This document shows, one piece after another, positions 7,137 through 62,509 of a stretch of DNA of 64,000 nucleotides. The position numbers and the translations under genes were made by a program. A model generated the notes under the pieces. It had not been told where the DNA came from. It was given only the letters and a program-made list of their open reading frames with translations, and did no database searches. How positions within the stretch are numbered: the stretch's first letter is position 1; each line of letters starts with the position of its first letter. Origin of the DNA: Minisyncoccota bacterium (GTDB lineage Bacteria > Patescibacteriota > Minisyncoccia > Phycocordibacterales > PALSA-1337); contig JBAZBL010000001.1 in assembly GCA_041671485.1 (NCBI GenBank), forward strand, positions 23,037 to 87,036, given 5' to 3'.

Positions 7137-7700
7137 ATGGAAAATGACTCTATAAATATAGTATCAGATGATAGTTTGGACGATTCGGTCGTAGCAGAAG
7201 AACATACAGGAGAAATGATAAAGAAGCTTCGCGAGAAGCTGAAGATCTGTGAAAAAGAAAAACTTGAATATCTAACAGGTTGGCAACGAGCCAAGGCCGA
7301 TCTTATTAATGCTAGAAAAAGAGATGATGATGATCGTAAAGAATTTATCAGATTTGCAAATGAAGGACTTTTGAATGATATACTGCCTGTTCTAGAGAGT
7401 TGGGACTCTGCAATGAATCACAAAGAATCTTGGGAAAAGGGAGATCCGAGCTGGAGGCAGGGGATGGAGTCTATCATAAATCAATTGAAGGGAGTTCTTT
7501 CTAATAATGGTCTAGCAGAGATAAACCCACTAGGAGAGAAGTTTGACCATTCCAAACATGAATCTGTATCACATAAAATAGTTGATGATGCCAAACTCGA
7601 CCAAATGATTCTTGATGTTGTACAAAAAGGTTATTCTCTGGGTGATAAAATATTGAAGCCTGCAAAGGTGGTAGTAGCTGAATACCGGGCTGTAGTATAG
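7137..7700 (+). CDS. grpE: Nucleotide exchange factor GrpE (3' end overlaps tRNA-Pro by ~15 nt)
   Basis: 187 aa. 'WQRAKADLINARKR' (the GrpE 'AEFENYRKR'-like motif), 'LPVLESWDSAM' and the C-terminal 'PAKVVVAE' are present. The stop TAG at 7698-7700 lies inside the predicted tRNA. Confidence 0.8.
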   Translation: MENDSINIVSDDSLDDSVVAEEHTGEMIKKLREKLKICEKEKLEYLTGWQRAKADLINARKRDDDDRKEFIRFANEGLLNDILPVLESWDSAMNHKESWEKGDPSWRQGMESIINQLKGVLSNNGLAEINPLGEKFDHSKHESVSHKIVDDAKLDQMILDVVQKGYSLGDKILKPAKVVVAEYRAVV

Positions 7701-7756
7701 CGGTAGTATACACCCATGGGGTGGGTGTAGTCCGGGTTCGACTCCCGGCAGCCCGA
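7686..7756 (+). tRNA. tRNA-Pro (anticodon GGG), atypical D/anticodon junction (71 nt, no encoded CCA)
   Basis: Perfect 7-bp acceptor CGGGCTG/CAGCCCG with discriminator A. D arm GTAT/ATAC with loop AGCGGTAGT. T arm CCGGG-TTCGACT-CCCGG. Anticodon hairpin CACCC-[ATGGGGT]-GGGTG gives U33-GGG-G37. The stretch between the D stem and the T stem is 2-3 nt shorter than canonical, so the fold is non-standard. Confidence 0.55.
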
Positions 7757-7773
7757 AGGGATGAAACAAGTCG
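7739..7773 (+). repeat. 35-bp direct repeat copy 1 (tRNA-Pro T-loop/3' end plus 17 nt of 3' flank)
   Basis: CGACTCCCGGCAGCCCGAAGGGATGAAACAAGTCG, identical to 7874-7908. Confidence 0.9.
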
Positions 7774-7873
7774 CTAATGCGACTTGTTTAGGGAGGCGAA
7801 AGGGTTTTCGATGTTTGCGAGGACGAGCTTGTCGAGTCCAAGCAAACCGAAAACCACCTGGCGACGTAGTCGC

Positions 7874-7908
7874 CGACTCCCGGCAGCCCGAAGGGATGAA
7901 ACAAGTCG
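7874..7908 (+). repeat. 35-bp direct repeat copy 2 (displaced partial tRNA-Pro 3' end); a third degenerate fragment GTAGTCCGAC at ~7925-7935
   Basis: Exact 35/35 match to 7739-7773. It is preceded by GTAGTC...GCC, which mimics the tRNA variable-loop/T-stem region with a deletion. Confidence 0.9.
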
Positions 7909-7933
7909 TTTTAACGACTTCCTGGTAGTCCGA

Positions 7934-19196: not shown

Positions 19197-22100
19197 ATGA
19201 TACACATGAAAAAGAAGACATACGGAGGTCAGACCTCCGGAGACAAATCAAAAGAATATAGTCCCTCTTTGATTGAAAATAAATGGCAAAGAAAATGGAA
19301 ATCTTCCAAGCTTTTCAAGACAAAAGAAGATACAAAGAAAGATAAATATTATATTCTAGACATGTTCCCATATCCTTCTGGTGAAGGACTTCATGTCGGG
19401 CATCCCAAAGGCTATATAGCGACCGATATAGTATCACGATACAGGAGAATGAGTGGGTACTCGGTTCTGCACCCTATGGGTTTCGATGCTTTCGGACTTC
19501 CTGCAGAGAATTATGCTATCCAGATGAAGACGAACCCAGCTATTGCAGTGTCTCAGAATGTCAAAAGATTCAAGAAGCAACTAGAAATTCTTGGCTTTGA
19601 CTATGATTGGTCTCGAGAAGTGAATACTACAGATCCAAAATACTATAAATGGACGCAATGGATCTTTCTACAACTTTTGAATAAGGGTCTAGCTTATGAA
19701 TCATATGAGCCGATAAACTGGTGTCCTTCTTGCAAAACTGGTTTGGCAAATGAAGATGTCGATGATGGTAGGTGCGAGAGGTGTGGTACTCCTGTAGAGA
19801 AGAAGCCGATGAGACAATGGGTCTTGAAGATCACTGATTATGCAGGAAGGTTGCTTGAGGATTTGGATGTAAAGAATAATGATGATAAACCCTTACTCGA
19901 CTGGCCGGAATCGATCAAAGAGGCTCAAAGGAATTGGATAGGGAGGAGTGAGGGAGCGGAGATAAAATTTCAAATTTCAAATTTCAAAGGTCAAAAATTA
20001 GAAAAGAACATAAAAGTCTTCACCACCCGCCCTGACACCATATTCGGCGTGACTTATTTGGTATTGGCACCAGAGCATAGATTGGTCAAAGAACTTTTGC
20101 CATTGGTTGAAAACAAAAAGGAAGTTGAGGAATATGTTGGTCGTGCCAAGAATGAGACCGAAATAGAGCGCACTGATGCCAAGAAAGAGAAGACCGGCGT
20201 TGAGATGAAGGGTATCAAGGTGATCAACCCCGCAAATAGAGAAGAGATACCTGTTTGGATAGCAGATTATGTTCTTGCCGACTATGGTACAGGCGCCGTC
20301 ATGGCTGTACCCTCACACGATGAGAGAGATTGGGATTTTGCGAAGAAGTTCGACTTACCGATAAAGCAGGTCATTGCACCTTACTTCACAGACAATCCTG
20401 GAAGTAAAGATGCTGTTAGAGATAATAAGAAAACAGTAAAAAGAAAGACTGCATATGCTCTTGTCTTTGACAAAAAAAATGATAAATTTTTATGCTTGAA
20501 TTGGGAAAAATTTGGTTGGCACTCTGGGATCATTGGTGGAGTTGATGATGGTGAAAGTTTCAAAGATGCAGCTTTACGAGAAATAAAAGAAGAAACTGGT
20601 TATAAAAATTTAAATTTGATCAAGAAATTGGGAGGTGAGCAACACAATCATTTCTTTGCTACTCATAAAGATGAAAACCGATATGCAATTGGCCATGGCA
20701 TGCTTTTTGAACTTGTGAATGATGAAAAAGAATTGGTTCTCGAAGAACATAGTTTAAACCATAAACCTGTGTGGATTGATATGGATAAAATGGAAGACTG
20801 GCTCAATTTGTCAGCTTTTAAATATATGTGGAAAGCTTACAAATCTAATTCGGATTGTTTTACTGGATATGGTAGGTTGTTAAATTCTGAGAAATTTGAT
20901 GGGACAGAAAGTAAAGATGTGATGAAAGAGATTACAGATTTTGTCGGTGGTCAGTGGGTCACAAAGTATAAACTCCGAGACTGGGTATTTTCTAGACAAC
21001 GGTATTGGGGCGAGCCGATACCTGTAATACATTGCACAAATTGTTTTGCAAAAGAGAATAAAACAAACGCAATTATTTTGCATGGCTGTCCTTCGAATGT
21101 TGAAAGAGCGATGGATCCTAAAAGACAAACATATGATAAACATTGGATACCATGGACAAAGAAACAATTAGAAATAGCAGGTATTGAGACACTAGTGCCA
21201 TTGATGCCAGAACCATGGCATATGTCATATGAAAAATGGAAGATAGAATTTGATAAATTACCGATAACTGAAAATAGTATTCTAATAGGACATAGTTGTG
21301 GATCTGCTTTTCTGGTTAGATGGTTGGGAGAGACAAAGAAAAAAGTGAGGATGCTTGTCTTGGTTGCACCTTGGAAAATAAATAGTAATAATGATGAATT
21401 TAGAAATAAATTCTATACATACACTATTGACAATGAAATTAAAGACAAAATAAAAAATATCTTTATCTTTACATCAGATGATGAGGAGGATAATGGAAAG
21501 AAAAGTGTCAATATCTTCAGAGAATCTTTGAATGCAAAAGTAATTGAATTAAAAAAACATGGTCATTATATTTACGGTGATATGAAAACAGAAGAATTCC
21601 CTGAATTAATAAATTTGATAAGTTCGTTTTCTTCCAAAGTAGTACCAGTTCCCGAGAAAGACCTACCAATAAAACTACCCAAAGTAAAATCCTATGAACC
21701 CACAGGAACAGGCGAATCGCCACTCGCTAATATAGACAAATGGGTCAATGTAAAGTGTCCAAAGTGCAAAGGTAAAGCCAAAAGAGAGACAAATACAATG
21801 CCACAATGGGCTGGCTCGTCTTGGTATTATTTGCGATATGAAGATCCAAAGAATAAAAAAGCATTCGTTGACACAAAGAAAGACAAATACTGGTCACCAG
21901 TTGACCTCTATGTAGGCGGAGCAGAACATGCCACGCGCCACCTCATATACGCTCGATTCTGGCACAAATTCTTGTACGATATAGGCATAGTCTCAACCAT
22001 CGAACCATTCATCAAACTTCAGAACGTAGGACTCATAATAGGTGAAGATGGAAGGAAGATGTCAAAAAGATTTGGTAATGTTGTCAATCCTGATGAAATT

Positions 22101-22802
22101 GTCGAAATATATGGAGCTGATACACTCCGAATATATGAAATGTTCATGGGTCCATTTGATCAACAGATCGCTTGGAATACGAACAGTATGGTTGGTTCTA
22201 GGAGATTTATCGAAAAAGTTTGGAGACTAAATAATAATCTAAAGACGAATAGAGGATCGACCGTCGCAGGGGCGACAAATGGCGACTTGGCGAAGCCAAC
22301 GAAGGCATTTAGTCGCCCCGAGGAGGGAGATCCGTATTTAATTTTGATTGATAAAACCCTTCACAAAGCAATTAAAAAGGTAACCGAAGACATTCAAGGA
22401 CTAAAATTCAATACTGCATTGAGTACACTTATGATTGCTGTGAATGAAATGGAGTCTTCGGGATCGGTGACTAGAGAACAATTCGAAATATTACTGAAAC
22501 TGCTAGCACCATTTGCTCCTTATGTAACAGAAGAATTGTGGTCTGGACTTGGTAATAAGAAATCGATACATATATCAGAATGGCCAGAGTATGATCCGAG
22601 CCTAATAGTTGATAATGAAGTAAAAATCATTGTTCAAGTGAATGGCAAGGTTCGTGGTTCATTTGACGCTGATCCAGATATAAATGAAGAAGAAATGAAG
22701 AAGAAAGCGCTCAATCTACCTGAAGTGAAAAAGTGGATTGATGGCAATCAAATCAAGAAAGTGATCGTCGTTAAAAGTAAGTTGGTGAGTTTGGTGGTTT
22801 AA
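19197..22802 (+). CDS. leuS: Leucyl-tRNA synthetase with two embedded extra domains (NUDIX hydrolase; alpha/beta serine hydrolase) and one in-frame palindromic element
   Basis: 1201 aa, versus ~800-880 typical. HIGH motif 'PYPSGEGLHVGHPKGY'. KMSKS motif 'KMSKRFGNVV'. 'YKLRDWVFSRQRYWGEPIP'. C-terminal anticodon-binding domain. The NUDIX box is 'GGVDDGESFKDAALREIKEETG'. A GxSxG hydrolase nucleophile 'IGHSCGSAF' lies within the insertion. Confidence 0.9.
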   Translation: MIHMKKKTYGGQTSGDKSKEYSPSLIENKWQRKWKSSKLFKTKEDTKKDKYYILDMFPYPSGEGLHVGHPKGYIATDIVSRYRRMSGYSVLHPMGFDAFGLPAENYAIQMKTNPAIAVSQNVKRFKKQLEILGFDYDWSREVNTTDPKYYKWTQWIFLQLLNKGLAYESYEPINWCPSCKTGLANEDVDDGRCERCGTPVEKKPMRQWVLKITDYAGRLLEDLDVKNNDDKPLLDWPESIKEAQRNWIGRSEGAEIKFQISNFKGQKLEKNIKVFTTRPDTIFGVTYLVLAPEHRLVKELLPLVENKKEVEEYVGRAKNETEIERTDAKKEKTGVEMKGIKVINPANREEIPVWIADYVLADYGTGAVMAVPSHDERDWDFAKKFDLPIKQVIAPYFTDNPGSKDAVRDNKKTVKRKTAYALVFDKKNDKFLCLNWEKFGWHSGIIGGVDDGESFKDAALREIKEETGYKNLNLIKKLGGEQHNHFFATHKDENRYAIGHGMLFELVNDEKELVLEEHSLNHKPVWIDMDKMEDWLNLSAFKYMWKAYKSNSDCFTGYGRLLNSEKFDGTESKDVMKEITDFVGGQWVTKYKLRDWVFSRQRYWGEPIPVIHCTNCFAKENKTNAIILHGCPSNVERAMDPKRQTYDKHWIPWTKKQLEIAGIETLVPLMPEPWHMSYEKWKIEFDKLPITENSILIGHSCGSAFLVRWLGETKKKVRMLVLVAPWKINSNNDEFRNKFYTYTIDNEIKDKIKNIFIFTSDDEEDNGKKSVNIFRESLNAKVIELKKHGHYIYGDMKTEEFPELINLISSFSSKVVPVPEKDLPIKLPKVKSYEPTGTGESPLANIDKWVNVKCPKCKGKAKRETNTMPQWAGSSWYYLRYEDPKNKKAFVDTKKDKYWSPVDLYVGGAEHATRHLIYARFWHKFLYDIGIVSTIEPFIKLQNVGLIIGEDGRKMSKRFGNVVNPDEIVEIYGADTLRIYEMFMGPFDQQIAWNTNSMVGSRRFIEKVWRLNNNLKTNRGSTVAGATNGDLAKPTKAFSRPEEGDPYLILIDKTLHKAIKKVTEDIQGLKFNTALSTLMIAVNEMESSGSVTREQFEILLKLLAPFAPYVTEELWSGLGNKKSIHISEWPEYDPSLIVDNEVKIIVQVNGKVRGSFDADPDINEEEMKKKALNLPEVKKWIDGNQIKKVIVVKSKLVSLVV
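19223..19239. repeat. Palindrome CGGAGGTC-A-GACCTCCG (family also at 49341 and 51121)
   Basis: Perfect 8-bp arms. It lies at codons 9-15 of the leuS ORF. Confidence 0.8.
19965..19985 (+). repeat. Heptanucleotide tandem repeat (AAATTTC)x3 inside leuS
   Basis: AAATTTCAAATTTCAAATTTC. The same heptamer, x4, occurs at the 5' end of the M23 peptidase gene. Confidence 0.85.
22254..22333. mobile_element. GC-rich palindromic miniature element (family A) inserted in-frame in leuS
   Basis: GGATC...CGTCGCAGGGGCGACAAATGGCGACTTGGCGAAGCCAACGAAGGCATTTAGTCGCCCCGAGGAGGG...GATCC. About 93% identical to the infB copy (44490-44576) and the topA copy (40424-40530, reverse complement). It encodes 'STVAGATNGDLAKPTKAFSRPEEGD' within an otherwise AT-rich gene. 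Confidence 0.75.
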
Positions 22803-26797: not shown

Positions 26798-28003
26798 ATG
26801 ATTCGTCAAGACAGAAAAAAGGTATTCATCGGCCTATCTGGAGGAGTAGATAGTGCTGTTTCTGCGACACTATTGAAAAGAGCTGGCTATGATATAACTG
26901 GTGTCTTCATCAAAGTCTGGCAACCAGATTGGATAGAGTGCTCTTGGCGAGAAGATAGGCTCGATGCAATGAGGGTTGCAGCACATCTAGATATACCCTT
27001 CATTACACTAGACCTAGAAAAAGAGTATAAACATGAAGTTATAGATTATATGATAGAGGAATACAAAAGAGGCAAAACACCAAATCCAGATGTAATGTGC
27101 AATCGAACAATCAAATTTGGTGCATTTTATGATTGGGCAATGCAAAATGGTGGAGACTTCGTAGCAACGGGGCACTATGCAAGAATCAGATGCCAGAACA
27201 TTGTCGGCGCTGACTTGTACCTGCGCGAAGCCTTTTCGCCTCACCACTACTCGCGGTTCGGCGAGAAAGGTTCGCTTCGGCACGCGTCAGCACCTGACAA
27301 TGTTAAATATTCTCTATCTATGGGAAAAGACTCAAATAAAGACCAATCGTATTTTCTCTGGACATTGAAGCAGGAACAATTGCCACATATTTTATTTCCT
27401 GTTGGCAATATGACAAAGCCGGAGGTTAGGAAGCTGGCAAAAAGGTTTGATTTGCCAAATGCTGACAAAAAAGACAGTCAAGGACTATGCTTTATTGGCA
27501 AGGTTGATGTAAAAGATTTTCTTTCACATTACATTGAGAGAGAAAGTGGTAATGTTCTAAATATGAATGGTGAAATCATAGGTAAACACCCAGGATCATT
27601 ATTTTTCACTATTGGAGAGAGACATGGTTTTAGTTTAGACAAGAAGACACCAAATGATGAGCCAATGTATGTCGTAGACAAAGACATAGAGCAAAATACG
27701 ATTACTGTCGGGGTGCGATTGGCTCGCGAAGTAAATGTGTCCGACTTGATGAACACTTCATCAGAGCAAATTTCAATTGAACAAGTGAATTGGATTCGAG
27801 GGAGTGTTCCAGAAAATTTCAAGGATAAAATATTCACTGCAAGGACTAGATATAGACAAAGACTCGAAAAAATAAGAATCATTTCTGTAACATTTACTGA
27901 AACAATAATAGAATTTATGGAAAAACAAGAGAATTTAGCTAGTGGACAATCACTTGTTATATATGATGGGGATGAATGTTTTGGTGGGGGAGTGATATCT
28001 TGA
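26798..28003 (+). CDS. mnmA: tRNA-specific 2-thiouridylase MnmA (start at internal ATG; contains ~30-aa in-frame GC-rich insertion)
   Basis: PP-loop 'VFIGLSGGVDSAVSA', 'GHYARI' and 'KDQSYFL'. The ORF track start at 26672 encodes an implausible low-complexity leader. Confidence 0.88.
   Translation: MIRQDRKKVFIGLSGGVDSAVSATLLKRAGYDITGVFIKVWQPDWIECSWREDRLDAMRVAAHLDIPFITLDLEKEYKHEVIDYMIEEYKRGKTPNPDVMCNRTIKFGAFYDWAMQNGGDFVATGHYARIRCQNIVGADLYLREAFSPHHYSRFGEKGSLRHASAPDNVKYSLSMGKDSNKDQSYFLWTLKQEQLPHILFPVGNMTKPEVRKLAKRFDLPNADKKDSQGLCFIGKVDVKDFLSHYIERESGNVLNMNGEIIGKHPGSLFFTIGERHGFSLDKKTPNDEPMYVVDKDIEQNTITVGVRLAREVNVSDLMNTSSEQISIEQVNWIRGSVPENFKDKIFTARTRYRQRLEKIRIISVTFTETIIEFMEKQENLASGQSLVIYDGDECFGGGVIS
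27204..27296. repeat. GC-rich palindromic in-frame insertion within mnmA (~90 bp)
   Basis: GGCGCTGAC...GCGCGAAGCCTTTTCGCC...GGCGAGAAAGGTTCGCTTCGGC...GCGTCAGCACC, with approximately reverse-complementary halves. It encodes 'VGADLYLREAFSPHHYSRFGEKGSLRHASAP' between the conserved GHYAR and KDQSYFL motifs. It is far GC-richer than its flanks. Confidence 0.7.
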
Positions 28004-31032: not shown

Positions 31033-31187
31033 GAGTGGACGCAGAGCAAAGCGCTTGAGCGCTTTGCGTGGAGGGATTTGAAAAGGTCGAGCATATTTTC
31101 GAACCTGAGCGAGCGATCAGCGAGTCGAAGGTGAGAAAATGCGAGACCTGTACAGAGTCTGTAAGACTCAAATCCCTCCCTGCGCAC
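31033..31187 (+). mobile_element. tRNA-3'-end-associated miniature element (copy 1), ending in a 20-bp duplicate of the tRNA-Tyr 3' end
   Basis: The direct repeat TCAAATCCCTCCCTGCGCAC occurs at 30984-31003 and 31168-31187. The left arm ACGCAG-[GC hairpin AGCAAAGCGCTTGAGCGCTTTGC]-GTGGAGGGATTTGAA is antisense to the tRNA 3' end. A ~60-nt core GAAAAGGTCGAGCATATTTTCGAACCTGAGCGAGCGATCAGCGAGTCGAAGGTGAGAAAATGCGA is ~97% identical to 43378-43438. Confidence 0.7.
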
Positions 31188-31219
31188 AAAATTTTACGTC
31201 AAGGTTAGTTCTTGCTGTA

Positions 31220-32554: not shown

Positions 32555-32839
32555 GTGCGAATGTTTGAGGACGATGAACGGAGTATTATGATCCAAAAAC
32601 AAAGATTCATTTTGTCTGTCGCCATGTTGATGGCCCTGGTAGCAGCGCTACTAGTGTTCATCAGCTATCCAAAAGAGGTGGCGCCGGTGATGACTCCGGT
32701 CATCACGAACACGGCTCCTGTAGAGGAGATCGTTGAGACCAACAATGTAGTCACCAATTCCGCGAAAGTGGATGGGGTGATAAACAAAACTGGATCAGTC
32801 TCGGTGACTGGAACAGTTCGTGCAGAGTTCGGGAAGTGA
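32555..32839 (+). CDS. Small membrane-anchored hypothetical protein (GC-rich island)
   Basis: 94 aa. One TM ('FILSVAMLMALVAALLVFI') and a Thr/Val-rich tail. Its GC content is distinctly higher than the surrounding genome. Confidence 0.5.
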   Translation: MRMFEDDERSIMIQKQRFILSVAMLMALVAALLVFISYPKEVAPVMTPVITNTAPVEEIVETNNVVTNSAKVDGVINKTGSVSVTGTVRAEFGK

Positions 32840-32898
32840 AGTGCAGTGCAGAAAACAACAGAAACAAACACAACAAACAGAGAAGAAAGACAACGCAG

Positions 32899-33990
32899 AT
32901 GAAAAAAACACAAATCCTATCGGTAATCTTATCAGTCACACTGCTCGCAGTCGGCGCCTTTGCGCAATCACCTCCAGCTTCTAGCGGTGGTGGTTCGAGC
33001 GGAGGCACGGGGACAATCGTGGTTCCGGCAGATAAAATGCCAACCGCGCTTGCCTTCCTCGGTTCCAAGGCGGCACTACGCGCTTTCGCTCGTGAAAGTG
33101 CAAGGAGCGCGAACTTAAACATCAACTCTGCCGGCATGCAGGGTACATGGGGAACTGGTTCCTCATGGGATTCCCCAAAAAGTCAAGAACAAATCCTTTC
33201 GATAATCAATGCGTGGAGGTTCACCTTCACCATGGAGAATCCAGCGGATTCTGTTCAGGCGACGACGGAAATCAAGAACAGCGACTGGGAGACTCTCTTC
33301 AGCGCGGAGTCTTGGCGGACGCCACAGCTTGTGAGTGGAAGTAGTTACCGATTGCCGGAACTTTACTTCCACTTAACACTGGCGGATATCATCCCATTCA
33401 AGGTTGACAGGTCGGTTCAATGGGGTCAAATCAAGTACCTCAATGACGACGGCAGAACGATCACTACCGTTGACCTTGTTGTCCGGAACGGAAAAGTTTA
33501 TTTCCGATCCGATCTCGCAGGTAAGGGAATTCTCGTCCTGCACAATAACGATGGGAGAACATTCCTGTATAACCTCCGGAATGGTGGAGTACAGGTACCA
33601 GTTGCAAGTGTTCAGTACATGGGGAGTTCCTCGTGGATTGAGAATATGCCATGGTTCAACAACCCAAGCACCATCAATCAGCAGGTCTGGAGCTGGAATG
33701 GTGTTGGCCAAAATCCTACATTCGATGTCAACATGGACTCGAGTGCATGGGTATCGTTCAGGACATATTCCAACGAAGGTGCCGAAGCGATTGGTTTCCA
33801 GGTACGACCACAAGGTGGCACGAACTGGACTTTCTATCCGGTTGTCCTACCTGCCAAGTATGTACCAATCCAACTCACCCCAGGCACCTCGTTTATCATT
33901 CCGGTATGGAATCCGGATGAGTTCAAGGAACCGGAGCCGTACATTCCTGAGAATGGGACGCCGGTGGGTTTCTTCGATGGTAAGGGTTAA
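32899..33990 (+). CDS. Secreted hypothetical protein with signal peptide (GC-rich island); start at ATG 32899
   Basis: 'MKKTQILSVILSVTLLAVGAFAQSP' looks like a signal peptide. It is followed by a Gly/Ser linker and a ~330-aa beta-rich domain rich in W and Y. No family was recognised. Confidence 0.6.
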   Translation: MKKTQILSVILSVTLLAVGAFAQSPPASSGGGSSGGTGTIVVPADKMPTALAFLGSKAALRAFARESARSANLNINSAGMQGTWGTGSSWDSPKSQEQILSIINAWRFTFTMENPADSVQATTEIKNSDWETLFSAESWRTPQLVSGSSYRLPELYFHLTLADIIPFKVDRSVQWGQIKYLNDDGRTITTVDLVVRNGKVYFRSDLAGKGILVLHNNDGRTFLYNLRNGGVQVPVASVQYMGSSSWIENMPWFNNPSTINQQVWSWNGVGQNPTFDVNMDSSAWVSFRTYSNEGAEAIGFQVRPQGGTNWTFYPVVLPAKYVPIQLTPGTSFIIPVWNPDEFKEPEPYIPENGTPVGFFDGKG

Positions 33991-34012
33991 CTGACCCCCG
34001 AATCAGTTTCAT

Positions 34013-34051
34013 CCCCGCAAGTTGCGCAAGCAGCTTGCGGGGTATTCTTTT
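34013..34051 (+). terminator. Rho-independent terminator CCCCGCAAG...CTTGCGGGG + TATTCTTTT
   Basis: 9-bp GC-rich stem with a 12-nt loop and a T-rich tail, directly after the island ORF. Confidence 0.75.
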
Positions 34052-37514: not shown

Positions 37515-37598
37515 ATCCGCATAATACATCACACATAAGAAAATGCAAAAAGATGGCATTGAATGACTGTGTCCACTTTATGGGGTACAGATCAATTG

Positions 37599-37680
37599 TG
37601 CCGGGAGAGAGAATCGAACTCTCATGGATTACTCCGTACGATTTTGAGTCGTATGCGTCTACCAATTCCGCCATCCCGGC
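37599..37680 (-). tRNA. tRNA-Leu (CAA), class II
   Basis: Reverse complement reads GCCGGGATGGCGGAATTGGTAGACGCATACGACTCAAAATCGTACGGAGTAATCCATGAGAGTTCGATTCTCTCTCCCGGCA. Anticodon arm TACGA-[CTCAAAA]-TCGTA, with a long variable arm. Confidence 0.9.
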
Positions 37681-39259: not shown

Positions 39260-41710
39260 TCAAGGATTAACTTCCTTTATTTTCTTTTTGAATCCACGTT
39301 GTTTCTTTTCTTGTGCCAATAACTCTAATGCACGTTCGAATGTAATATTGTAAATATCATCTGGTGCTTTGACTGAACGGAAGTCGCCATCAAGGACGAC
39401 GTATGGACCAAAACGTCCGATCGAAGCTGTAATTTCTTTATTTGTCTTTGGATCTATACCCAATACTTTTGGCAAACTCAAATATTTGAGAGCATCTGCA
39501 ACCGTAACTTTCATAGGATCAGCGTTCTTTGGAATCGAGGCCATCTTTGGTTTAAAATTAGCAACAATTTTATTGGCATCTTGCTCTTCACTTTTCACTT
39601 TTAACTTTTCCCCGCGCGCCAAGCTTCGCCCGGCGAAGCGGGCGGGACTTTTAATCTTTATTTTCCCCTTAATCCTCTCCCCCAACTGCACATATGGTCC
39701 AAATCTTCCATTCAAAACAAATATTGGCAATCCTGTTGTCGGATCTATACCTATAGGTTCATCTTTCTTGAATTCCATACCGTCTATAGTGAGTGCTCCA
39801 TCACAATCGGGATATTTTGAACATGATATAAATTTGCCGTTCTTTCCTAGTTTTATTTCCATAGAAGGACTGCCACATTTCGGACATTTGAACTTTGAAT
39901 CTGCTAAACCAAGATTGGTCAATTTGTCTATCTTTTCTTTGGACTTCACTTCTTTGTGAAATGGTCCATAAAAGTCAGTAAGAGTCTTCAAATATGTACG
40001 TTCACCATTTGCTATTTCATCGAGTTCATTCTCCATCTCTGCTGTAAAGTCATCACTTATATAAGTAGGGAAGTTCTCCTCTAGGAATGTAGAAACAACT
40101 TCACCTATATCGGTCGGCTTTAGAGAGCGACCCTCCTTTTCTACATAACCTCTATCTTCTATAGTCTTTGAAATAGAAGCGTATGTAGAAGGACGCCCTA
40201 TGCCTCTCTTTTCCAATTCTTTGATCAAACCTGCTTCTGTATATCGAGACGGTGGTTGTGTTTGCTTTTCTTCGGAATCAATATTCAAAAGCTTCAATGA
40301 TTCTCCTTTATCACATTTTGGTAAATTAACTTCATCGCCACTTGAATCTGGATCAGCCTTGAGCCAGCCGTCGAATAAAATACGAGAACCATTTGCTTCG
40401 AAGTTTGGGATGCCACCGGCCGCTTCTCCCTCCTCGGCGCGACTAAATGTCTTCGTTTGCTTCGCAAAGTCGACATTTGTCGCCGCCTCGACGGTCGAAG
40501 CGGCCTCCGACGCCGTTCGCGGAGGGAGAATGTTCTCCACCGATTCCAAAATGTTTGCAATAATCTTTGTTTTCGCCAATCTTGCATCTGCCATTTGAGA
40601 AGCAACCGCTCTTTGCCAAATAAGTTTATAAAGACGCTTTTGTTCATCCGTATGTCCAGCAACAGATTTATTGAAATGACTTGGTCTTATAGCTTCATGT
40701 GCTTCTTGAGCATTTTTGCTCTTTGTAGCATATGTTCTTATATGTAGGTAATTTTTGCCATATTCTTTTTCTACCACTTGGCTTATCTGTGCCAATGCTT
40801 GCTCTCCTAGATTCGTAGAATCTGTCCTCATATATGTGATATATCCAGATTCGTACAATTTCTGGGCAATACTCATTGTCCTAGAAGGAGAAAAACCGAG
40901 TCTTGAACTAGCGGTCTGTTGCAAAGTAGATGTTATAAATGGTGCGCGTGGAGATCTCTTTTGTTCTGATTCTTCTATGTCTATGACTTTCCAATCATTC
41001 TTTTTTGCAGTGTCAATTATGTATTCAGCTTCTTCTTTCTTCTTTGGCTCTACAGAACAAGATAGATGCAATTTACCATCTTTTGTAGTCAACCAATCTC
41101 CAGCAATAGTCCAATATGTCTCTGGCTTGAATGCACGGATCTCTCTTTCTCTCTCCATTATTATACGTAGAGCAGGGGACTGGACTCGGCCAGCAGACAA
41201 GCCATAACGAACTTTTTTCCAGATAAGTCCGGAGAGATCATATCCTACTATCCTGTCTAGAACACGACGAGCTTCTTGTGCTTCTTTTAGATTTTCATCT
41301 ATAGGTCTAGGACTTTTGAGAGCTTCCTCTACAGCTTCTTTTGTAACTTCATGATATGTGATTCTCTTTATCTTCGATGCAGGGATCTTGTCATAACCAT
41401 CAGACAAGCCCTTCTTGGTCAGAAGCTCCTTCAAATGCCAAGCTATGGCTTCACCTTCACGGTCTGGGTCGGTTGCAAGAAGTATTTCATCGGCTTTCTC
41501 TGCTTCAATCCTTATTTCATCTATGATAGTTTGCTTCTTTGCTACGACTTCATAGTGGGGTATAAAACCGCCTTCTATATCTACTGCTTTTTTATTGGAC
41601 TTTGGCAGATCACGCACATGACCAACAGAAGCACGTACGATAAAATCTTTTCCCAAATATTTGGAAATAGTTTTTGCTTTTGAGGGGGACTCGACGATCA
41701 GTAGTTTCAT
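39260..41710 (-). CDS. topA: DNA topoisomerase I (with two in-frame GC-rich palindromic insertions)
   Basis: Toprim N-terminus 'LLIVESPSKAKTISKYLG', the catalytic Tyr region, and C-terminal zinc ribbons 'CPKCGS...CSKYPDC'. Confidence 0.92.
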   Translation of the reverse strand: MKLLIVESPSKAKTISKYLGKDFIVRASVGHVRDLPKSNKKAVDIEGGFIPHYEVVAKKQTIIDEIRIEAEKADEILLATDPDREGEAIAWHLKELLTKKGLSDGYDKIPASKIKRITYHEVTKEAVEEALKSPRPIDENLKEAQEARRVLDRIVGYDLSGLIWKKVRYGLSAGRVQSPALRIIMEREREIRAFKPETYWTIAGDWLTTKDGKLHLSCSVEPKKKEEAEYIIDTAKKNDWKVIDIEESEQKRSPRAPFITSTLQQTASSRLGFSPSRTMSIAQKLYESGYITYMRTDSTNLGEQALAQISQVVEKEYGKNYLHIRTYATKSKNAQEAHEAIRPSHFNKSVAGHTDEQKRLYKLIWQRAVASQMADARLAKTKIIANILESVENILPPRTASEAASTVEAATNVDFAKQTKTFSRAEEGEAAGGIPNFEANGSRILFDGWLKADPDSSGDEVNLPKCDKGESLKLLNIDSEEKQTQPPSRYTEAGLIKELEKRGIGRPSTYASISKTIEDRGYVEKEGRSLKPTDIGEVVSTFLEENFPTYISDDFTAEMENELDEIANGERTYLKTLTDFYGPFHKEVKSKEKIDKLTNLGLADSKFKCPKCGSPSMEIKLGKNGKFISCSKYPDCDGALTIDGMEFKKDEPIGIDPTTGLPIFVLNGRFGPYVQLGERIKGKIKIKSPARFAGRSLARGEKLKVKSEEQDANKIVANFKPKMASIPKNADPMKVTVADALKYLSLPKVLGIDPKTNKEITASIGRFGPYVVLDGDFRSVKAPDDIYNITFERALELLAQEKKQRGFKKKIKEVNP
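39596..39653. repeat. 42-bp GC-rich palindromic element (CTTTTCCCCGCGCGCCAAGCTTCGCCCGGCGAAGCGGGCGGG) flanked by 8-bp direct repeat ACTTTTAA, in-frame in topA
   Basis: The direct repeats sit at 39596-39603 and 39646-39653. The element contains the perfect palindrome GCTTCGCC-C-GGCGAAGC. It encodes 'SPARFAGRSLARGE' between KIK and KVK codons. Confidence 0.7.
40424..40530. mobile_element. GC-rich palindromic miniature element (family A, reverse orientation) with 10-bp perfect TIR TTCTCCCTCC/GGAGGGAGAA, in-frame in topA
   Basis: The reverse complement of the inner ~65 nt (CCGTCGAGGCGGCGACAAATGTCGACTTTGCGAAGCAAACGAAGACATTTAGTCGCGCCGAGGAGGG) matches the leuS and infB copies at ~85-90%. It encodes 'STVEAATNVDFAKQTKTFSRAEEGE', paralleling the leuS peptide. 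Confidence 0.75.
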
Positions 41711-43304: not shown

Positions 43305-43486
43305 CACTAAAAAATATATAATGATAGACTTATTTGCCCGGGAGCAAGGTGCATTTGCACCTTGCGAGTGAGAATCGAAAAGTCTGAGCATATTTTCGAA
43401 CCTGAGCGAGCGATCAGCGAGTGGAAGGTGAGAAAATGCGAAGACTATACCGTTCCAGTATGGAAAGATTCCCACCCCGGGCACAC
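43305..43486 (+). mobile_element. tRNA-3'-end-associated miniature element (copy 2), ending in a 20-bp duplicate of the tRNA-Leu(TAA) 3' end
   Basis: The direct repeat GATTCCCACCCCGGGCACAC occurs at 43288-43307 and 43467-43486. The left arm TTTGCCCGGG-[GC hairpin AGCAAGGTGCATTTGCACCTTGC]-GAGTGAGAATCGAA is antisense to the tRNA 3' end. The ~60-nt core at 43378-43438 is shared with the tRNA-Tyr copy. Confidence 0.7.
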
Positions 43487-43502
43487 TTGATCTGTACCCC
43501 AT

Positions 43503-43835: not shown

Positions 43836-45437
43836 TTAACCTACCTTTTCCACCGTCTTCACCGCCTCCACTCTATCTCCAACAGCAATTTCAACTTTTG
43901 CTTCTACCATAACACCAAATTCATGTCCCTCTCTAACTTCACCTGTTCTCATCTTCTTTTCTTGAAGTTCTCTTATCTTACCTCGTCCAATCTCTGCATC
44001 TCTTCTAATTATCTTTACTTCATTTCCAGTCAAAATAGTACCCGTTACAACCTTTCCACCAATAACTTGTTTATCTCTTTCTTTTGAAAATATCGCAAGA
44101 ATCTTGGCGAGGCCAATTGATTCCTCTATATATTCTTTTGGCACTTTTGCCAGTAATGAATCACGAACGAATTGAACCAATTCATATATAACTTTGAATG
44201 TTTTGACATTTACAGAATTGTGCTCGATCACAGCAACAACCTTCTTGTCTGGCATTGAATTGAAACCAATTATTGTAATATTTGGATCACCCATGGCAAT
44301 CTTTACATCATTTTCATTTATATCACCAATACCTTCGGAAACAACCTTTATTTGCACCTTATCATGTTTTATCTTTGCCAATTCATGTTTGACACCATCG
44401 AGACTGCCTATAACATCAGCTTTGATGATAATGGGGAATGAAATAATTTCTGTCTCTGTATTCTCTTCAGAATCAATAGCTGACTTGTTGTCGTCGCCCC
44501 CGTCGCAGGCGGCGACAAATGGCGACTTCGCGAAGCGAACGAAGGCATTTCGTCGCGCCGAGGAGGGGGCGACGACTGAAATCTTATTTACCTCCACCAA
44601 CTTCTCTGCCTCTTTCTTTGTATCAACTATAGTAAATGTACTTCCACAAACAGGTATTTCATTCCAGCCACTAACAATTACAGGCATTGAAGCTATCGCT
44701 CTATCAATCTTTTGTCCTTTGAAATCTTCTATAAAACGAATTGGTGTGTAAGATACACCTGCAACAGCAAATGTACCTATTCCAAGTGTTCCATTTTTTA
44801 TCAATAATGTGGCTTGTATTCCTTTTTGTGTATCCATTTCAGATTCTATGACTATACCTTCTGCAGATTTATCTGGATCTGTTTTGAGATCGGCCAATTC
44901 GGAAATCAAAATAACCATATCCAAAAGTTCTGAAATGCCTTCTCCATTCAAGGAAGAAATTGATACATTTGGAATATCACCACCCCAACCTTCAAGATAT
45001 ACCTCATTCTCGCCCAAACTTTGTTTTGTCTTATTTATATCTGCATTTGGTTTGTCTATCTTATTTATAGCAACAACATAGGGGATTTTTGCATTTTTAA
45101 TTTCGTTCAAAGCTTCTATCGTTTGTGGCTTTACACCATCTTCAGCAGAAACAACCAATATTGCTACATCAGCAGCTTTGGCACCTCTCTCACGGATAGT
45201 ACAAAAGGCTTCATGACCTGGTGTATCCAAAAATGTGATTTCATGTTTATTCCCATCACTACTTATATGCTCTACTTCATATGCGCCAACGTGCTGGGTT
45301 ATACCACCAGCTTCGCCTGCAACTATATTTGATTTCCTGATGAAATCGAGCAGAGTAGATTTGCCATGATCTATATGACCCATAACAACGACTATAGGAG
45401 GCCGCTTTATGCAGTTTTTTGTATTCTTATTTGGCAT
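43836..45437 (-). CDS. infB: Translation initiation factor IF-2 (short form; contains in-frame palindromic element)
   Basis: G-domain 'VVVMGHIDHGKSTLLDFIR', 'DTPGHEAF' and 'NKIDK'. The C-terminal beta-barrel domains are present. Confidence 0.92.
   Translation of the reverse strand: MPNKNTKNCIKRPPIVVVMGHIDHGKSTLLDFIRKSNIVAGEAGGITQHVGAYEVEHISSDGNKHEITFLDTPGHEAFCTIRERGAKAADVAILVVSAEDGVKPQTIEALNEIKNAKIPYVVAINKIDKPNADINKTKQSLGENEVYLEGWGGDIPNVSISSLNGEGISELLDMVILISELADLKTDPDKSAEGIVIESEMDTQKGIQATLLIKNGTLGIGTFAVAGVSYTPIRFIEDFKGQKIDRAIASMPVIVSGWNEIPVCGSTFTIVDTKKEAEKLVEVNKISVVAPSSARRNAFVRFAKSPFVAACDGGDDNKSAIDSEENTETEIISFPIIIKADVIGSLDGVKHELAKIKHDKVQIKVVSEGIGDINENDVKIAMGDPNITIIGFNSMPDKKVVAVIEHNSVNVKTFKVIYELVQFVRDSLLAKVPKEYIEESIGLAKILAIFSKERDKQVIGGKVVTGTILTGNEVKIIRRDAEIGRGKIRELQEKKMRTGEVREGHEFGVMVEAKVEIAVGDRVEAVKTVEKVG
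44490..44576. mobile_element. GC-rich palindromic miniature element (family A) with 12-14-bp perfect TIR GTCGTCGCCCCC/GGGGGCGACGAC, 87 bp (29 codons), in-frame in infB
   Basis: Inner sequence CGTCGCAGGCGGCGACAAATGGCGACTTCGCGAAGCGAACGAAGGCATTTCGTCGCGCCGAGGAGGG. It is in the opposite coding orientation to the leuS and topA copies. It encodes 'SSARRNAFVRFAKSPFVAACDGGDD' in IF-2. Confidence 0.8.
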
Positions 45438-46994: not shown

Positions 46995-47037
46995 TAATTT
47001 GAAAGGAGTCAAATAAATTGGACCCTTTCAAATAGGG

Positions 47038-47213
47038 TTTGGAGGTGCAAATACAGAAACTCAAACCTGCGTAACTCGCTTGCGTCATTCTCTTGTATTT
47101 TCACAAAAGACTCGACCTCTCGGACATGAACGGCCTCGTCTTTTGGAAAATACTAGTCGAATGACTACGCTCGAACAGTACTCGGTTTGAGTTTCTGTAT
47201 TTGCACCTCCAAA
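47038..47213. repeat. 176-bp element with 30-bp perfect terminal inverted repeats (TTTGGAGGTGCAAATACAGAAACTCAAACC ... GGTTTGAGTTTCTGTATTTGCACCTCCAAA); interior is an imperfect palindrome
   Basis: Arms at 47038-47067 and 47184-47213. The interior halves (GCGTCATTC.../...GAATGAC...GC and TTTTCACAAAAGAC/GTCTTTTGGAAAA) are also roughly symmetric. The element is intergenic between rplU and recR. Confidence 0.85.
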
Positions 47214-47226
47214 CTAAACTTTTCTG

Positions 47227-54298: not shown

Positions 54299-54766
54299 AT
54301 GATTGAACTTACAACAGGTGTAATCTTCCTAATGTCATCCCTATACGGCTCTCAACATGCAGATATGCAAGTTGCAAATATTGCAAATGCACAGATGCAG
54401 GACGAAGAAAAAGTAGAGAAGGTGGCAATTGTGAAGATTGTTGATCCAAAAGACATCGAAGCATATATCCGCAAAGAATTTTCTGATAAGCCAATCCTAA
54501 TTGAAATTGCATGGTGCGAATCACGCTTCAGGCAATTCAATGAAAATGGAACAGTAATTCGTGGTGAAAAAAATAGCAAAGATGTCGGTGTGATGCAGAT
54601 CAATGAAAGATTCCATGCCGAAGATGCAGTCGAACTAGGATATAACATATATTCAACACAGGGTAATACAGCATTTGGTAAATATCTTTATGAGAAGTAT
54701 GGAACAGATCCATGGAGCGCGTCCAAGAAGTGTTGGAGTCAGTCGGGTGATCTCGCGAAGAAGTAA
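54299..54766 (+). CDS. Small lysozyme-like / lytic transglycosylase (SLT-like) domain protein
   Basis: N-terminal hydrophobic segment. Catalytic-Glu context 'IAWCESRFRQ' and 'GVMQIN' fit the family-1 lytic transglycosylase pattern. Confidence 0.6.
   Translation: MIELTTGVIFLMSSLYGSQHADMQVANIANAQMQDEEKVEKVAIVKIVDPKDIEAYIRKEFSDKPILIEIAWCESRFRQFNENGTVIRGEKNSKDVGVMQINERFHAEDAVELGYNIYSTQGNTAFGKYLYEKYGTDPWSASKKCWSQSGDLAKK
54639..54766 (+). repeat. 128-bp direct repeat, copy 1 (3' end of SLT-like gene)
   Basis: 126/128 identical to 57332-57459. Similarity continues ~45 bp further downstream into terminator-like hairpins (GGCTCC..GGAGTCTTTTGTT). Confidence 0.9.
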
Positions 54767-57331: not shown

Positions 57332-57459
57332 GATATAACATATATTCAACACAGGGTAATACAGCATTTGGTAAATATCTTTATGAGAAGTATGGAACAG
57401 ATCCATGGAGCGCGTCCAAGAAGTGTTGGAATCAGGCGGGTGATCTCGCGAAGAAGTAA
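57332..57459 (+). repeat. 128-bp direct repeat, copy 2 (orphan 3' fragment of the SLT-like gene; preceded by in-frame stop)
   Basis: It matches 54639-54766 with 2 mismatches. It has no upstream coding continuation. Confidence 0.9.
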
Positions 57460-61608: not shown

Positions 61609-61843
61609 ATGGGTATTATAGCAAGAAAGTATATGAATTTCTTTATGCTAGAGTTATCAACAACAAGTAAATTTGACTATATATATCCAATTTGTTAGTC
61701 TTTAATTAGAAGTATGCAATAATAACTTACGAGGTGCTCCGATGTTCCCTCAGAATATCTGGGGCTTGAGTTGGAGAACACCACCTTGTGAGACGCTACT
61801 TCTAACAAAGAACCCCTTTCCACTTCGGTCAGGGATTTTTTGT

Positions 61844-62509
61844 TTATATTATAATCGATTTTCCATTGAACAATTCCCTCCCCTTTCCAATAATATTTTT
61901 CTTCAGAATTTTGAAACATTCCTCACCTAGTTTTCCTTTTTCAAGATATCGTGCCAAAGCTCCTGCAATCCAGTCGGCAATTTGAATATTCACTACCGCA
62001 GTTGAATCAACCATTTCAATTTGTAAAACTACACCCTTTGGCAAGGATGGTAACAGACGAGCTTTTAGGACTTCCTTGAATTCTGTCTCGGACATACCAC
62101 TCAATCTTCTACGGTCGCAGAAAACACGAAACTCTTTATCAGTTGTCGGTAAATATGATGTTAGTATTTCGCCGACTATATTTGTATATAAAAGTCCGCT
62201 CTGTAATTTATTTTTATGATGATACTCTGCTGGAATATTTCTATGAAGTAAATAGGCAAAATGTATTCGAACATCTAGTTTTGAAATCTCTCTCAAAGTC
62301 TTTAGGCGTAAGGCATCAGAAAATCCGGTACTTGCCCATTTAATCTCACTCAGATCACGCATCTTTCTAGGAAAATGGCCACGAAGCCATGCTCGAAATC
62401 CCTTTGCTGTTCGCCGAACATTGCCAACAGTAAATGAAGCAACAATAAAATAGTTTTTATTACTGTACTTGGAAAATTGTCCACTTTCATCAAGAAAAAT
62501 ATATGGCAT
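61844..62509 (-). CDS. DUF3800-family protein
   Basis: N-terminal 'YIFLDESG' and C-terminal 'IQIADWIAGAL' match the DUF3800 signature motifs. Family membership is recalled from memory. Confidence 0.6.
   Translation of the reverse strand: MPYIFLDESGQFSKYSNKNYFIVASFTVGNVRRTAKGFRAWLRGHFPRKMRDLSEIKWASTGFSDALRLKTLREISKLDVRIHFAYLLHRNIPAEYHHKNKLQSGLLYTNIVGEILTSYLPTTDKEFRVFCDRRRLSGMSETEFKEVLKARLLPSLPKGVVLQIEMVDSTAVVNIQIADWIAGALARYLEKGKLGEECFKILKKNIIGKGRELFNGKSIII

Follow-up and report, generated by a model that had tools for sequence, protein, structure and literature searches.

In a 64,000-nt stretch of the genome of a Minisyncoccota bacterium (contig JBAZBL010000001.1, positions 23,037 to 87,036; hereafter the window), we identified a GC-rich palindromic repeat of about 75–95 nt, Family A, that lies in frame within leuS, topA, and infB and that recurs in other assemblies of the candidate phyla radiation (CPR). 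We consider it probable that Family A is a non-autonomous repeat, similar in behavior to repetitive extragenic palindromes (REPs) and the Rickettsia palindromic elements (RPEs), that spreads between sites and between lineages and survives in permissive protein loops. The principal argument comes from sequence divergence: the copies in the window are 85–96% identical to those at other loci, whereas the only other DNA that can be aligned, a conserved housekeeping gene, is 65% identical, which favors recent spread between lineages over common descent.

The leuS gene (19197–22802, plus strand) is a single uninterrupted open reading frame (ORF) of 1201 codons, coding for a 1201-aa leucyl-tRNA synthetase (LeuRS) with Pfam tRNA-synt_1 and Anticodon_1 domains, and the C-terminal third of the protein matches solved bacterial LeuRS chains in the Protein Data Bank (E values of 1e-80 to 1e-59). 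Apart from a start called three codons downstream, the same protein is in the database as 'leucine--tRNA ligase [Candidatus Paceibacterota bacterium]', from a metagenome-assembled genome (MAG); the names Candidatus Paceibacterota and Minisyncoccota are synonyms for one CPR phylum, and the host is thus a CPR bacterium, as a preliminary description made from the DNA letters had supposed. By sequence, ORF, and translation, copy 1 (22254–22333, plus strand) lies in leuS in frame and in forward orientation, and repeat finding, nhmmer, and a covariance model detect it over 22257–22330 (plus strand). Its core starts at 22259 and reads CCGTCGCAGGGGCGAC...GAGGAGGG, with an apical hairpin TTGGC-GAA-GCCAA at 22285–22301, and it is enclosed by an outer stem in which GGATC (22254–22258) pairs with GATCC (22329–22333). 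The LeuRS translation runs across the element as ...RGSTVAGATNGDLAKPTKAFSRPEEGDP... (in a longer excerpt, ...NRGSTVAGATNGDLAKPTKAFSRPEEGDPY...), the copy itself encoding STVAGATNGDLAKPTKAFSRPEEGD, just as the preliminary description had quoted it. That description had also reported a 67-nt near-palindrome; the GC-rich hairpin flanked by GGATC and GATCC is indeed present, but it measures about 80–90 nt when the outer stem is counted. The element is about 60% GC, compared with 38% for the leuS gene.

Copy 2 (40418–40505, minus strand) lies in frame in topA (39260–41710, minus strand), which codes for an 816-aa DNA topoisomerase I, and has the same orientation and frame as copy 1. It is detected over 40425–40498 on the minus strand, is 89% identical to the leuS copy, and encodes STVEAATNVDFAKQTKTFSRAEEGE; its 9-bp outer stem pairs GGCCGCTTC with GAAGCGGCC, and its apical hairpin is TTTGC-GAA-GCAAA. 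The copy is part of a larger extra GC-rich block (40412–40546, minus strand; residues about 389–433) that also contains two small hairpins, GGAGAACATTCTCC and CTCCGCGAACGGCGTCGGAG, 5′ of the copy at 40506–40546. Copy 3 (about 44490–44576, plus strand) lies in frame in infB (43836–45437, minus strand; 533 aa), the gene for translation initiation factor IF-2; it is 92–93% identical in the repeat comparison, with a 12-bp outer stem of GTCGTCGCCCCC and GGGGGCGACGAC and an apical hairpin TTCGC-GAA-GCGAA. It is inverted relative to its gene and therefore encodes a different peptide, APSSARRNAFVRFAKSPFVAACDGG (also excerpted as SSARRNAFVRFAKSPFVAA). Repeat finding, nhmmer with its filters off, and a covariance model all agree on exactly three Family A copies in the 64 kb; pairwise identities among them are 89–93%, and the expected number of chance occurrences in the window of a 24-nt piece of the element is 0. 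The topA and infB copies reported in the preliminary description as near-identical thus exist, although at 89–93% identity and, in infB, in the opposite orientation.

All three of these ORFs traverse the element without a stop, as do those carrying the three intragenic copies found elsewhere (in genes for polynucleotide phosphorylase [PNPase], GatB, and a glycosyltransferase, described below), and the proposal of in-frame insertion therefore extends to every intragenic copy: six of six are in frame and none disrupts its gene. That all three window copies are genic is unsurprising by itself as about 90% of the window is coding, and it is the absence of gene breakage that matters. The four forward intragenic copies all share one frame, A-T-N/S-V/G-D-F/L-A-K-x-T-K...R-A-E-E-G, and the two inverted ones use two different frames, which brings the number of frames used to at least three of six. 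As for the two forward frames that no intragenic copy uses, TAG closes one in some variants, and the other gives an extremely basic peptide (RRRRRQMSTLRSKRRH); we attribute the forward frame bias to purifying selection against these alternatives. Three to six of the six frames are open, no more than in dinucleotide shuffles, and we rejected the idea that the element has evolved to be coding-neutral beyond its GC content; its coding tolerance reflects GC-richness together with selection against disruptive insertions, rather than a special adaptation. We also rejected restriction avoidance, as GTMKAC occurs at 29 sites in the window versus 29.4 expected; the window encodes an AccI-like enzyme, and GTCGAC, an AccI-type site, is present in most copies, the leuS and infB copies excepted.

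Homologous proteins lack these segments, in agreement with the suggestion that they are lineage-specific insertions: they are missing from 120 LeuRS and 150 TopA homologues and from the solved LeuRS, TopA, and IF-2 structures. The LeuRS stretch RRFIEKVWRL..HKAIKKVTEDI is 65 aa long in the window and mostly 36–46 aa in the 120 best homologues, the nearest of which is about 60% identical; the loop is variable in length, but the element peptide occurs among these homologues in no frame, and the excess of about 25 aa is close to what was first proposed. The corresponding TopA stretch is 82 aa in the window, 37–43 aa in 128 of 150 representatives, and 40–41 aa in the four nearest, and Escherichia coli TopA residues 416–422 (seven residues) align to window residues 384–435 (52 residues). 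The net excess of 42 aa over the nearest TopA homologues is accounted for by the Family A copy and the two adjoining small hairpins together. The infB copy falls within a variable linker after IF-2 domain II, and the window protein is about 16 residues longer than Thermus IF-2 in this comparison.

Mapping of the LeuRS segment onto a structure, as had been proposed, places it in a low-confidence loop between two helices. In an AlphaFold model of the C-terminal 385 residues, built with 60 homologues, the anticodon-binding and C-terminal domains have a predicted local distance difference test (pLDDT) score of about 90, and the element residues 205–222 form coil with pLDDT below 50 between helices 179–197 and 230–251 (fragment numbering). 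The TopA, IF-2, PNPase, and GatB insertions fall at gaps in alignments to solved structures, and together with the model this suggests that the insertion sites are permissive or surface loops. The length of the window LeuRS has a separate source, as NUDIX and Ser_hydrolase (PF06821) domains are inserted mid-protein at about 20400–21600. The 120 LeuRS homologues nearest to it all come from Paceibacterota/Patescibacteria; most of them have the NUDIX insert as well, and many also carry hydrolase or HAD domains.

Using the 20-base probe CGACTTNGCGAAGCNAACGAAG in one scan each of species-representative genomes and metagenome contigs, with one more locus reached through a protein lead, we found five full copies and one divergent copy outside the window, all in CPR assemblies. 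Three of the full copies are intragenic: a forward, in-frame copy in a PNPase gene, forming a 34-aa point insertion relative to solved PNPases; an inverted, in-frame copy in a glycosyltransferase gene, using a third element frame; and a forward, in-frame copy in gatB, within a 64-aa insertion relative to solved structures. The PNPase and glycosyltransferase loci come from the same Patescibacteria MAG, and FK_Sedi_B_Bin.203 is a MAG with two copies on different contigs. The other two full copies are intergenic, in the rplW-rplB spacer of a Saccharibacteria MAG (loci L002 and L005) and in a groES-groEL spacer, and both sit in highly expressed operons in the sense orientation. The divergent copy, beside a tRNA-like sequence, has the apical module only and scores 43.7 bits.

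Protein searches did not extend this set. A six-frame concatenated peptide profile had no match in a set of 5.8 billion proteins, its 140-position model scoring true sites at only 30–34 bits. A forward-frame profile with real flanks returned only two spurious 39-aa ORFs lying over the intergenic copies and missed the window TopA and LeuRS, which are present in the collection. Carriers cannot be counted in this way because the protein word index is insensitive to so short a motif.

Each window copy folds into a single long imperfect hairpin. Folding energies as RNA are −45.6 kcal/mol for the leuS copy (z scores of −6.6 as RNA and −5.8 as DNA), −54.0 kcal/mol for the topA copy (−8.4 and −6.0), and −46.2 kcal/mol for the infB copy (−5.0 and −3.9). 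An alignment of eight copies, the three from the window and the five full copies from elsewhere, reveals a nearly invariant core of about 62 nt, CCGTCG(C)AGG(C)GGCGAC-AAATGNC-GAC-TTNGC-GAA-GCN′AA-CGAA-GNCATTT-N-GTCGCNCC-GAGGAGGG. Within it, GG(C)GGCGAC pairs with GTCGCNCC as the main stem, and AAATGNC pairs with GNCATTT as the inner stem, in which AAGTG/CACTT can replace AAATG/CATTT. At the tip, the mini-hairpin TTNGC-GAA-GCN′AA covaries, N:N′ being G:C, T:A, or C:G. The main stem is flanked by two mutually non-complementary segments, a 5′ tag CCGTCG that is invariant in all eight copies and apparently unpaired (although part of it can pair in predicted folds) and a conserved, unpaired 3′ tail GAGGAGGG. 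Outside these lies an outer stem of 5–12 bp that has a different sequence in each copy and is always self-complementary, as in the GatB (CCTCCGTCTC/GAGGCGGAGG) and glycosyltransferase (GCCGCTC/GAGCGGC) copies; six of the eight have a second CGTC(A)GCC or CGTT directly 5′ of it.

The hairpin is conserved through compensatory change. In the eight-copy alignment, 86% of cells are paired, compared with 35–51% when the partners are slid; 11 pairs are changed on both sides, a number reached in 5 of 500 shuffles; and the covariation score is 0.229 versus 0.097 in shuffles, none of 500 reaching the observed value. Wobble pairs do not decide between structure at the RNA and at the DNA level, with nine G.T and four A.C mismatches on the forward strand. 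Rfam 15 has no match to the element at gathering score, and only chance-level matches of 9–14 bits at E values up to 10; one of these, in which the topA copy matches the L2-Alphaproteobacteria leader with 12 bits, we attribute to chance, the copy upstream of rplB having no such match. GCGAAGC, a heptamer known to form an exceptionally stable mini-hairpin in DNA, is found at nine sites in the window versus 2.8 expected (including 22290, 27225, 39623, 39633, 40459, and 44530), and six of the nine are at or near the tips of GC-rich hairpins within genes.

In its behavior Family A resembles the RPEs, palindromes found in frame within Rickettsia genes (RPE-1 to RPE-10; Ogata et al. 2000, 2002, as summarised in PMC10969869). 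RPEs and the intragenic GTAG/CGTC REPs behave similarly, including in aminoacyl-tRNA synthetase genes (PMC10969869, PMC3733652). As with RPEs, Family A is a repeat that forms a hairpin and carries no gene, present at many unrelated loci, also between genes, and often in frame in the housekeeping genes of a reduced genome, where it adds a peptide at a fold-compatible site. It differs in that its hosts are CPR bacteria, Paceibacterota and Saccharibacteria, rather than Rickettsia; in its length of about 75–95 nt, compared with about 100–150 nt for RPEs; and in being GC-rich in an AT-rich genome, with a copy-specific outer stem and a core common to very distant lineages. It appears to be at best an RPE analogue, likened to RPEs by its behavior. 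The preliminary description's view of it as RPE-like selfish DNA holds for this behavior, and its selfish, mobile nature we infer from its distribution.

The likeness to GTAG/CGTC REPs (Di Nocera et al. 2013, PMC3733652) includes a conserved, apparently unpaired tag beside a GC-rich stem (CCGTCG in Family A), stems that vary within a family, the sense orientation in operon spacers, and intragenic copies that encode 20–30 aa, tRNA synthetase genes among their sites. No dedicated transposase is known for CGTC REPs, whose units are 20–40 bp with stems of 8–9 bp starting with A/T pairs, loops of 4–5 nt, and a CCA tail (PMC3733652). In contrast, Family A is 75–95 nt long, its stems start with G/C, its 'loop' is a compound hairpin, and its tail is GAGGAGGG; this structure lies outside the definition of the four CGTC-REP families described so far. 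[quoted passage not shown]

A further parallel is found in the optional GC-rich clusters of yeast mitochondria, GC-rich palindromes in an AT-rich genome, some of them in frame (var1), that are thought to be mobile without encoding anything. Like Family A, some of these clusters add residues to proteins, but they belong to an organelle, are unrelated in sequence, and have flanking A/T-rich duplications, of which we saw none for Family A.

We propose that Family A is a small palindromic repeat, non-coding by origin and without a gene of its own, that would have been copied to non-homologous sites within the Paceibacterota genome and passed horizontally between distantly related CPR lineages. The visible copies would be the survivors of purifying selection, those that have a multiple of three bases, contain no stop, and lie in flexible surface loops or linkers or in operon spacers. 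These would be transcribed and, within genes, translated as harmless disordered peptides, and a GC-rich element in an AT-rich genome, being nearly stop-free in all six frames, could be accommodated whichever way round it lies. Conserved and apparently unpaired tags next to a covarying stem suggest that an enzyme acting on a single-stranded hairpin may be responsible, of the HUH/RAYT (REP-associated tyrosine transposase) or IS200/IS605 type rather than the DDE transposase of classical MITEs; enzymes of the REP/RAYT and IS200/IS605 types recognise unpaired tags beside a stem conserved in structure but not in sequence (PMC3733652). The copy-specific outer stems may have formed either because the core inserted at the tips of small hairpins that were already there or because strand switching extended the palindrome.

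Several observations weigh against this proposal. Neither the 64-kb window nor the retrieved flanks contain a gene for a transposase, an integrase, or an HUH nuclease, and there is no copy in viral contigs, phage records, or plasmids, such that no vector is known. The element has no conserved terminal inverted repeats, its outer stems differing in every copy, and a reading by eye of the eight copies, whose boundaries are not exactly fixable, gave no consistent flanking direct repeat of the kind left by target-site duplication. With the exact 20-base probe the family is rare, at four genome loci and two true metagenome loci. We found no closely related strain whose site is empty; for LeuRS, TopA, and IF-2, the clusters at 90% contain only the same sequences or ones with a different start call, and insertion is thus deduced from distant orthologues rather than seen directly. 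Finally, a selected function could account equally well for the strong covariation and for the invariant, asymmetric core.

Other hairpins occur at comparable positions. In two other Paceibacterota LeuRS genes (loci L019 and L020), the same loop, between RRFIERVWKL and (H/N)K(T/A)IKKVT(E/D)DI, carries unrelated hairpins: in L019, a REP-like dimer with ATTCCCGC...GCGGGAAT stems, encoding ...LDSRFRGNDK, and in L020, a 138-nt hairpin of −79 kcal/mol. At the position of the window TopA insertion, one TopA representative (P0135) bears a different peptide that looks repeat-like (RHPELVEGS...LRQAQNDV). In the window, a further small GC-rich hairpin, CCCCGCGCGCCAAGCTTCGCCCGGCGAAGCGGGCGGG, encoding SPARFAGRSLARG, lies near the topA C-terminus at about 39610–39647, and mnmA, coding for an MnmA-like tRNA 2-thiouridylase, contains in frame another GC-rich hairpin of 100 nt at 27203–27303 (−46.6 kcal/mol). 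We considered the mnmA hairpin (27201–27299) as a member of Family A, but the Family A model gives it only 18 bits, and it probably belongs to another hairpin family. With unrelated hairpins in the LeuRS and TopA loops, in mnmA, and at the topA C-terminus, hairpin insertions into permissive loops look common in Paceibacterota.

A broader version of the proposal, which we hold to be possible but on the improbable side, is that Family A is one of several hairpin elements moved between CPR lineages by a structure-reading enzyme that recognizes an unpaired CGTC-type tag and a hairpin and prefers the apex of existing hairpins. This would explain the centering of the core in a copy-specific palindrome, the second CGTC tag, and the repeated striking of the same LeuRS and TopA loops, and, if true, it would mean that CPR bacteria have a new route by which DNA flows horizontally and protein loops evolve.

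Alternatively, the hairpin could be a selected functional element in RNA or single-stranded DNA, such as a site at which a CPR protein binds or processes it, an mRNA stabilizer (a role suggested for REPs), or a signal in replication or recombination, although we regard this as unlikely. Compensatory change, seen in the outer stem as well as in the apical and inner ones, and an asymmetric core that is invariant across distant lineages would be expected of such an element; each of the three window copies also gives a better RNA fold from its forward strand than from its reverse strand, and both intergenic copies lie in sense orientation in their highly expressed operons. However, the sites, in six different proteins and two spacers, are unrelated to one another, and with two of the six intragenic copies antisense to the mRNA, no common RNA-level role fits. 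Nor does the element match an Rfam family even at E values up to 10, the nine G.T and four A.C mismatches are not decisive, and the orthologous genes work without the element.

We surmise that two further explanations are very improbable. One is that the segment is untranslated, being excised from the mRNA or bypassed during translation, as in the 'byp' elements of Magnusiomyces or the gap of T4 gene 60; byps are GC-rich hairpins within the AT-rich coding sequence of Magnusiomyces mitochondria, and a stable GC-rich hairpin in an AT-rich coding sequence is just such a context. Yet the six intragenic copies keep the frame without a stop, in three element frames, an outcome with a chance of about (1/3)^6 were translation irrelevant, and we noticed no take-off/landing codon pair, although none was searched for. 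The other is that the peptide is an adaptive module, a shared interaction or localization tag recruited by several housekeeping proteins, in line with the common frame of the four forward intragenic copies; against it, the inverted copies encode unrelated peptides in two further frames, intergenic copies exist, the segment is modeled as disordered, and the frame bias is explained by purifying selection. We give practically no weight to an assembly or amplification artefact or to independent origin of each palindrome by template switching: strand switching can make hairpins, and the outer stems do differ between copies, but several assemblies made independently (two NCBI MAG accessions, JGI, and ENA) yield identical host proteins, and a 62-nt asymmetric core that is 85–96% identical at nine loci cannot arise independently.

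The window contains other repeats and candidate acquired segments. Two 128-nt direct repeats (54639–54766 and 57332–57459) are 98% identical and 2.7 kb apart, the first forming the 3′ end of an SLT-like ORF; an NYN-domain gene and small ORFs lie between them and a Bro-N gene follows, an arrangement that looks like a small integrated island. The 3′ part of a tRNA-Pro gene (7686–7756) together with the sequence following it (7739–7785) is repeated 135 nt downstream (7874–7920) with 89% identity, and could be the scar of a site-specific integration. Related segments of about 114 nt (31075–31188 and 43372–43485; 78% identical) follow tRNA-Tyr and tRNA-Leu(TAA), and a 36-nt piece (43467–43502) recurs inverted at 37580–37615, overlapping the 3′ end of tRNA-Leu(CAA) (37598–37680, minus strand); judged by sequence, these are probably a conserved tRNA-flanking element. 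A DUF3800-V RNA motif (61708–61803; 82.6 bits) adjoins a gene for a DUF3800 protein (61844–62509). The ORF at 32836–33990 (384 aa) is 51% GC, compared with about 37% for the genome, has no confident Pfam match, and is possibly a foreign gene; a strong terminator hairpin lies at about 34012–34044. A perfect 31-nt inverted repeat (47037–47067 and 47184–47214), its arms 116 nt apart, lies in the intergenic spacer that separates the L21 gene from the RecR gene.

The genomes of CPR bacteria are very small, and an 80–90-nt hairpin repeat has entered at least six different proteins, essential or housekeeping ones, in several of these lineages. We know of no account of small repeats inserted in CPR genes, and in full-text searches of the literature we came across none for CPR/Patescibacteria, consistent with the preliminary description's belief that they were undescribed there, although this is weak negative evidence, an absence of evidence only. 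The most interesting points are the conservation of the element across lineages and its copy-specific yet complementary outer stems. If confirmed on complete genomes, Family A would be a marker of recent DNA exchange among CPR lineages and would provide a natural map of insertion-tolerant loops in LeuRS, TopA, IF-2, PNPase, and GatB; it would also constitute a second system, independent of that in Rickettsia, in which palindromes become protein sequence. For annotation, odd GC-rich segments in CPR proteins may be repeat-derived.

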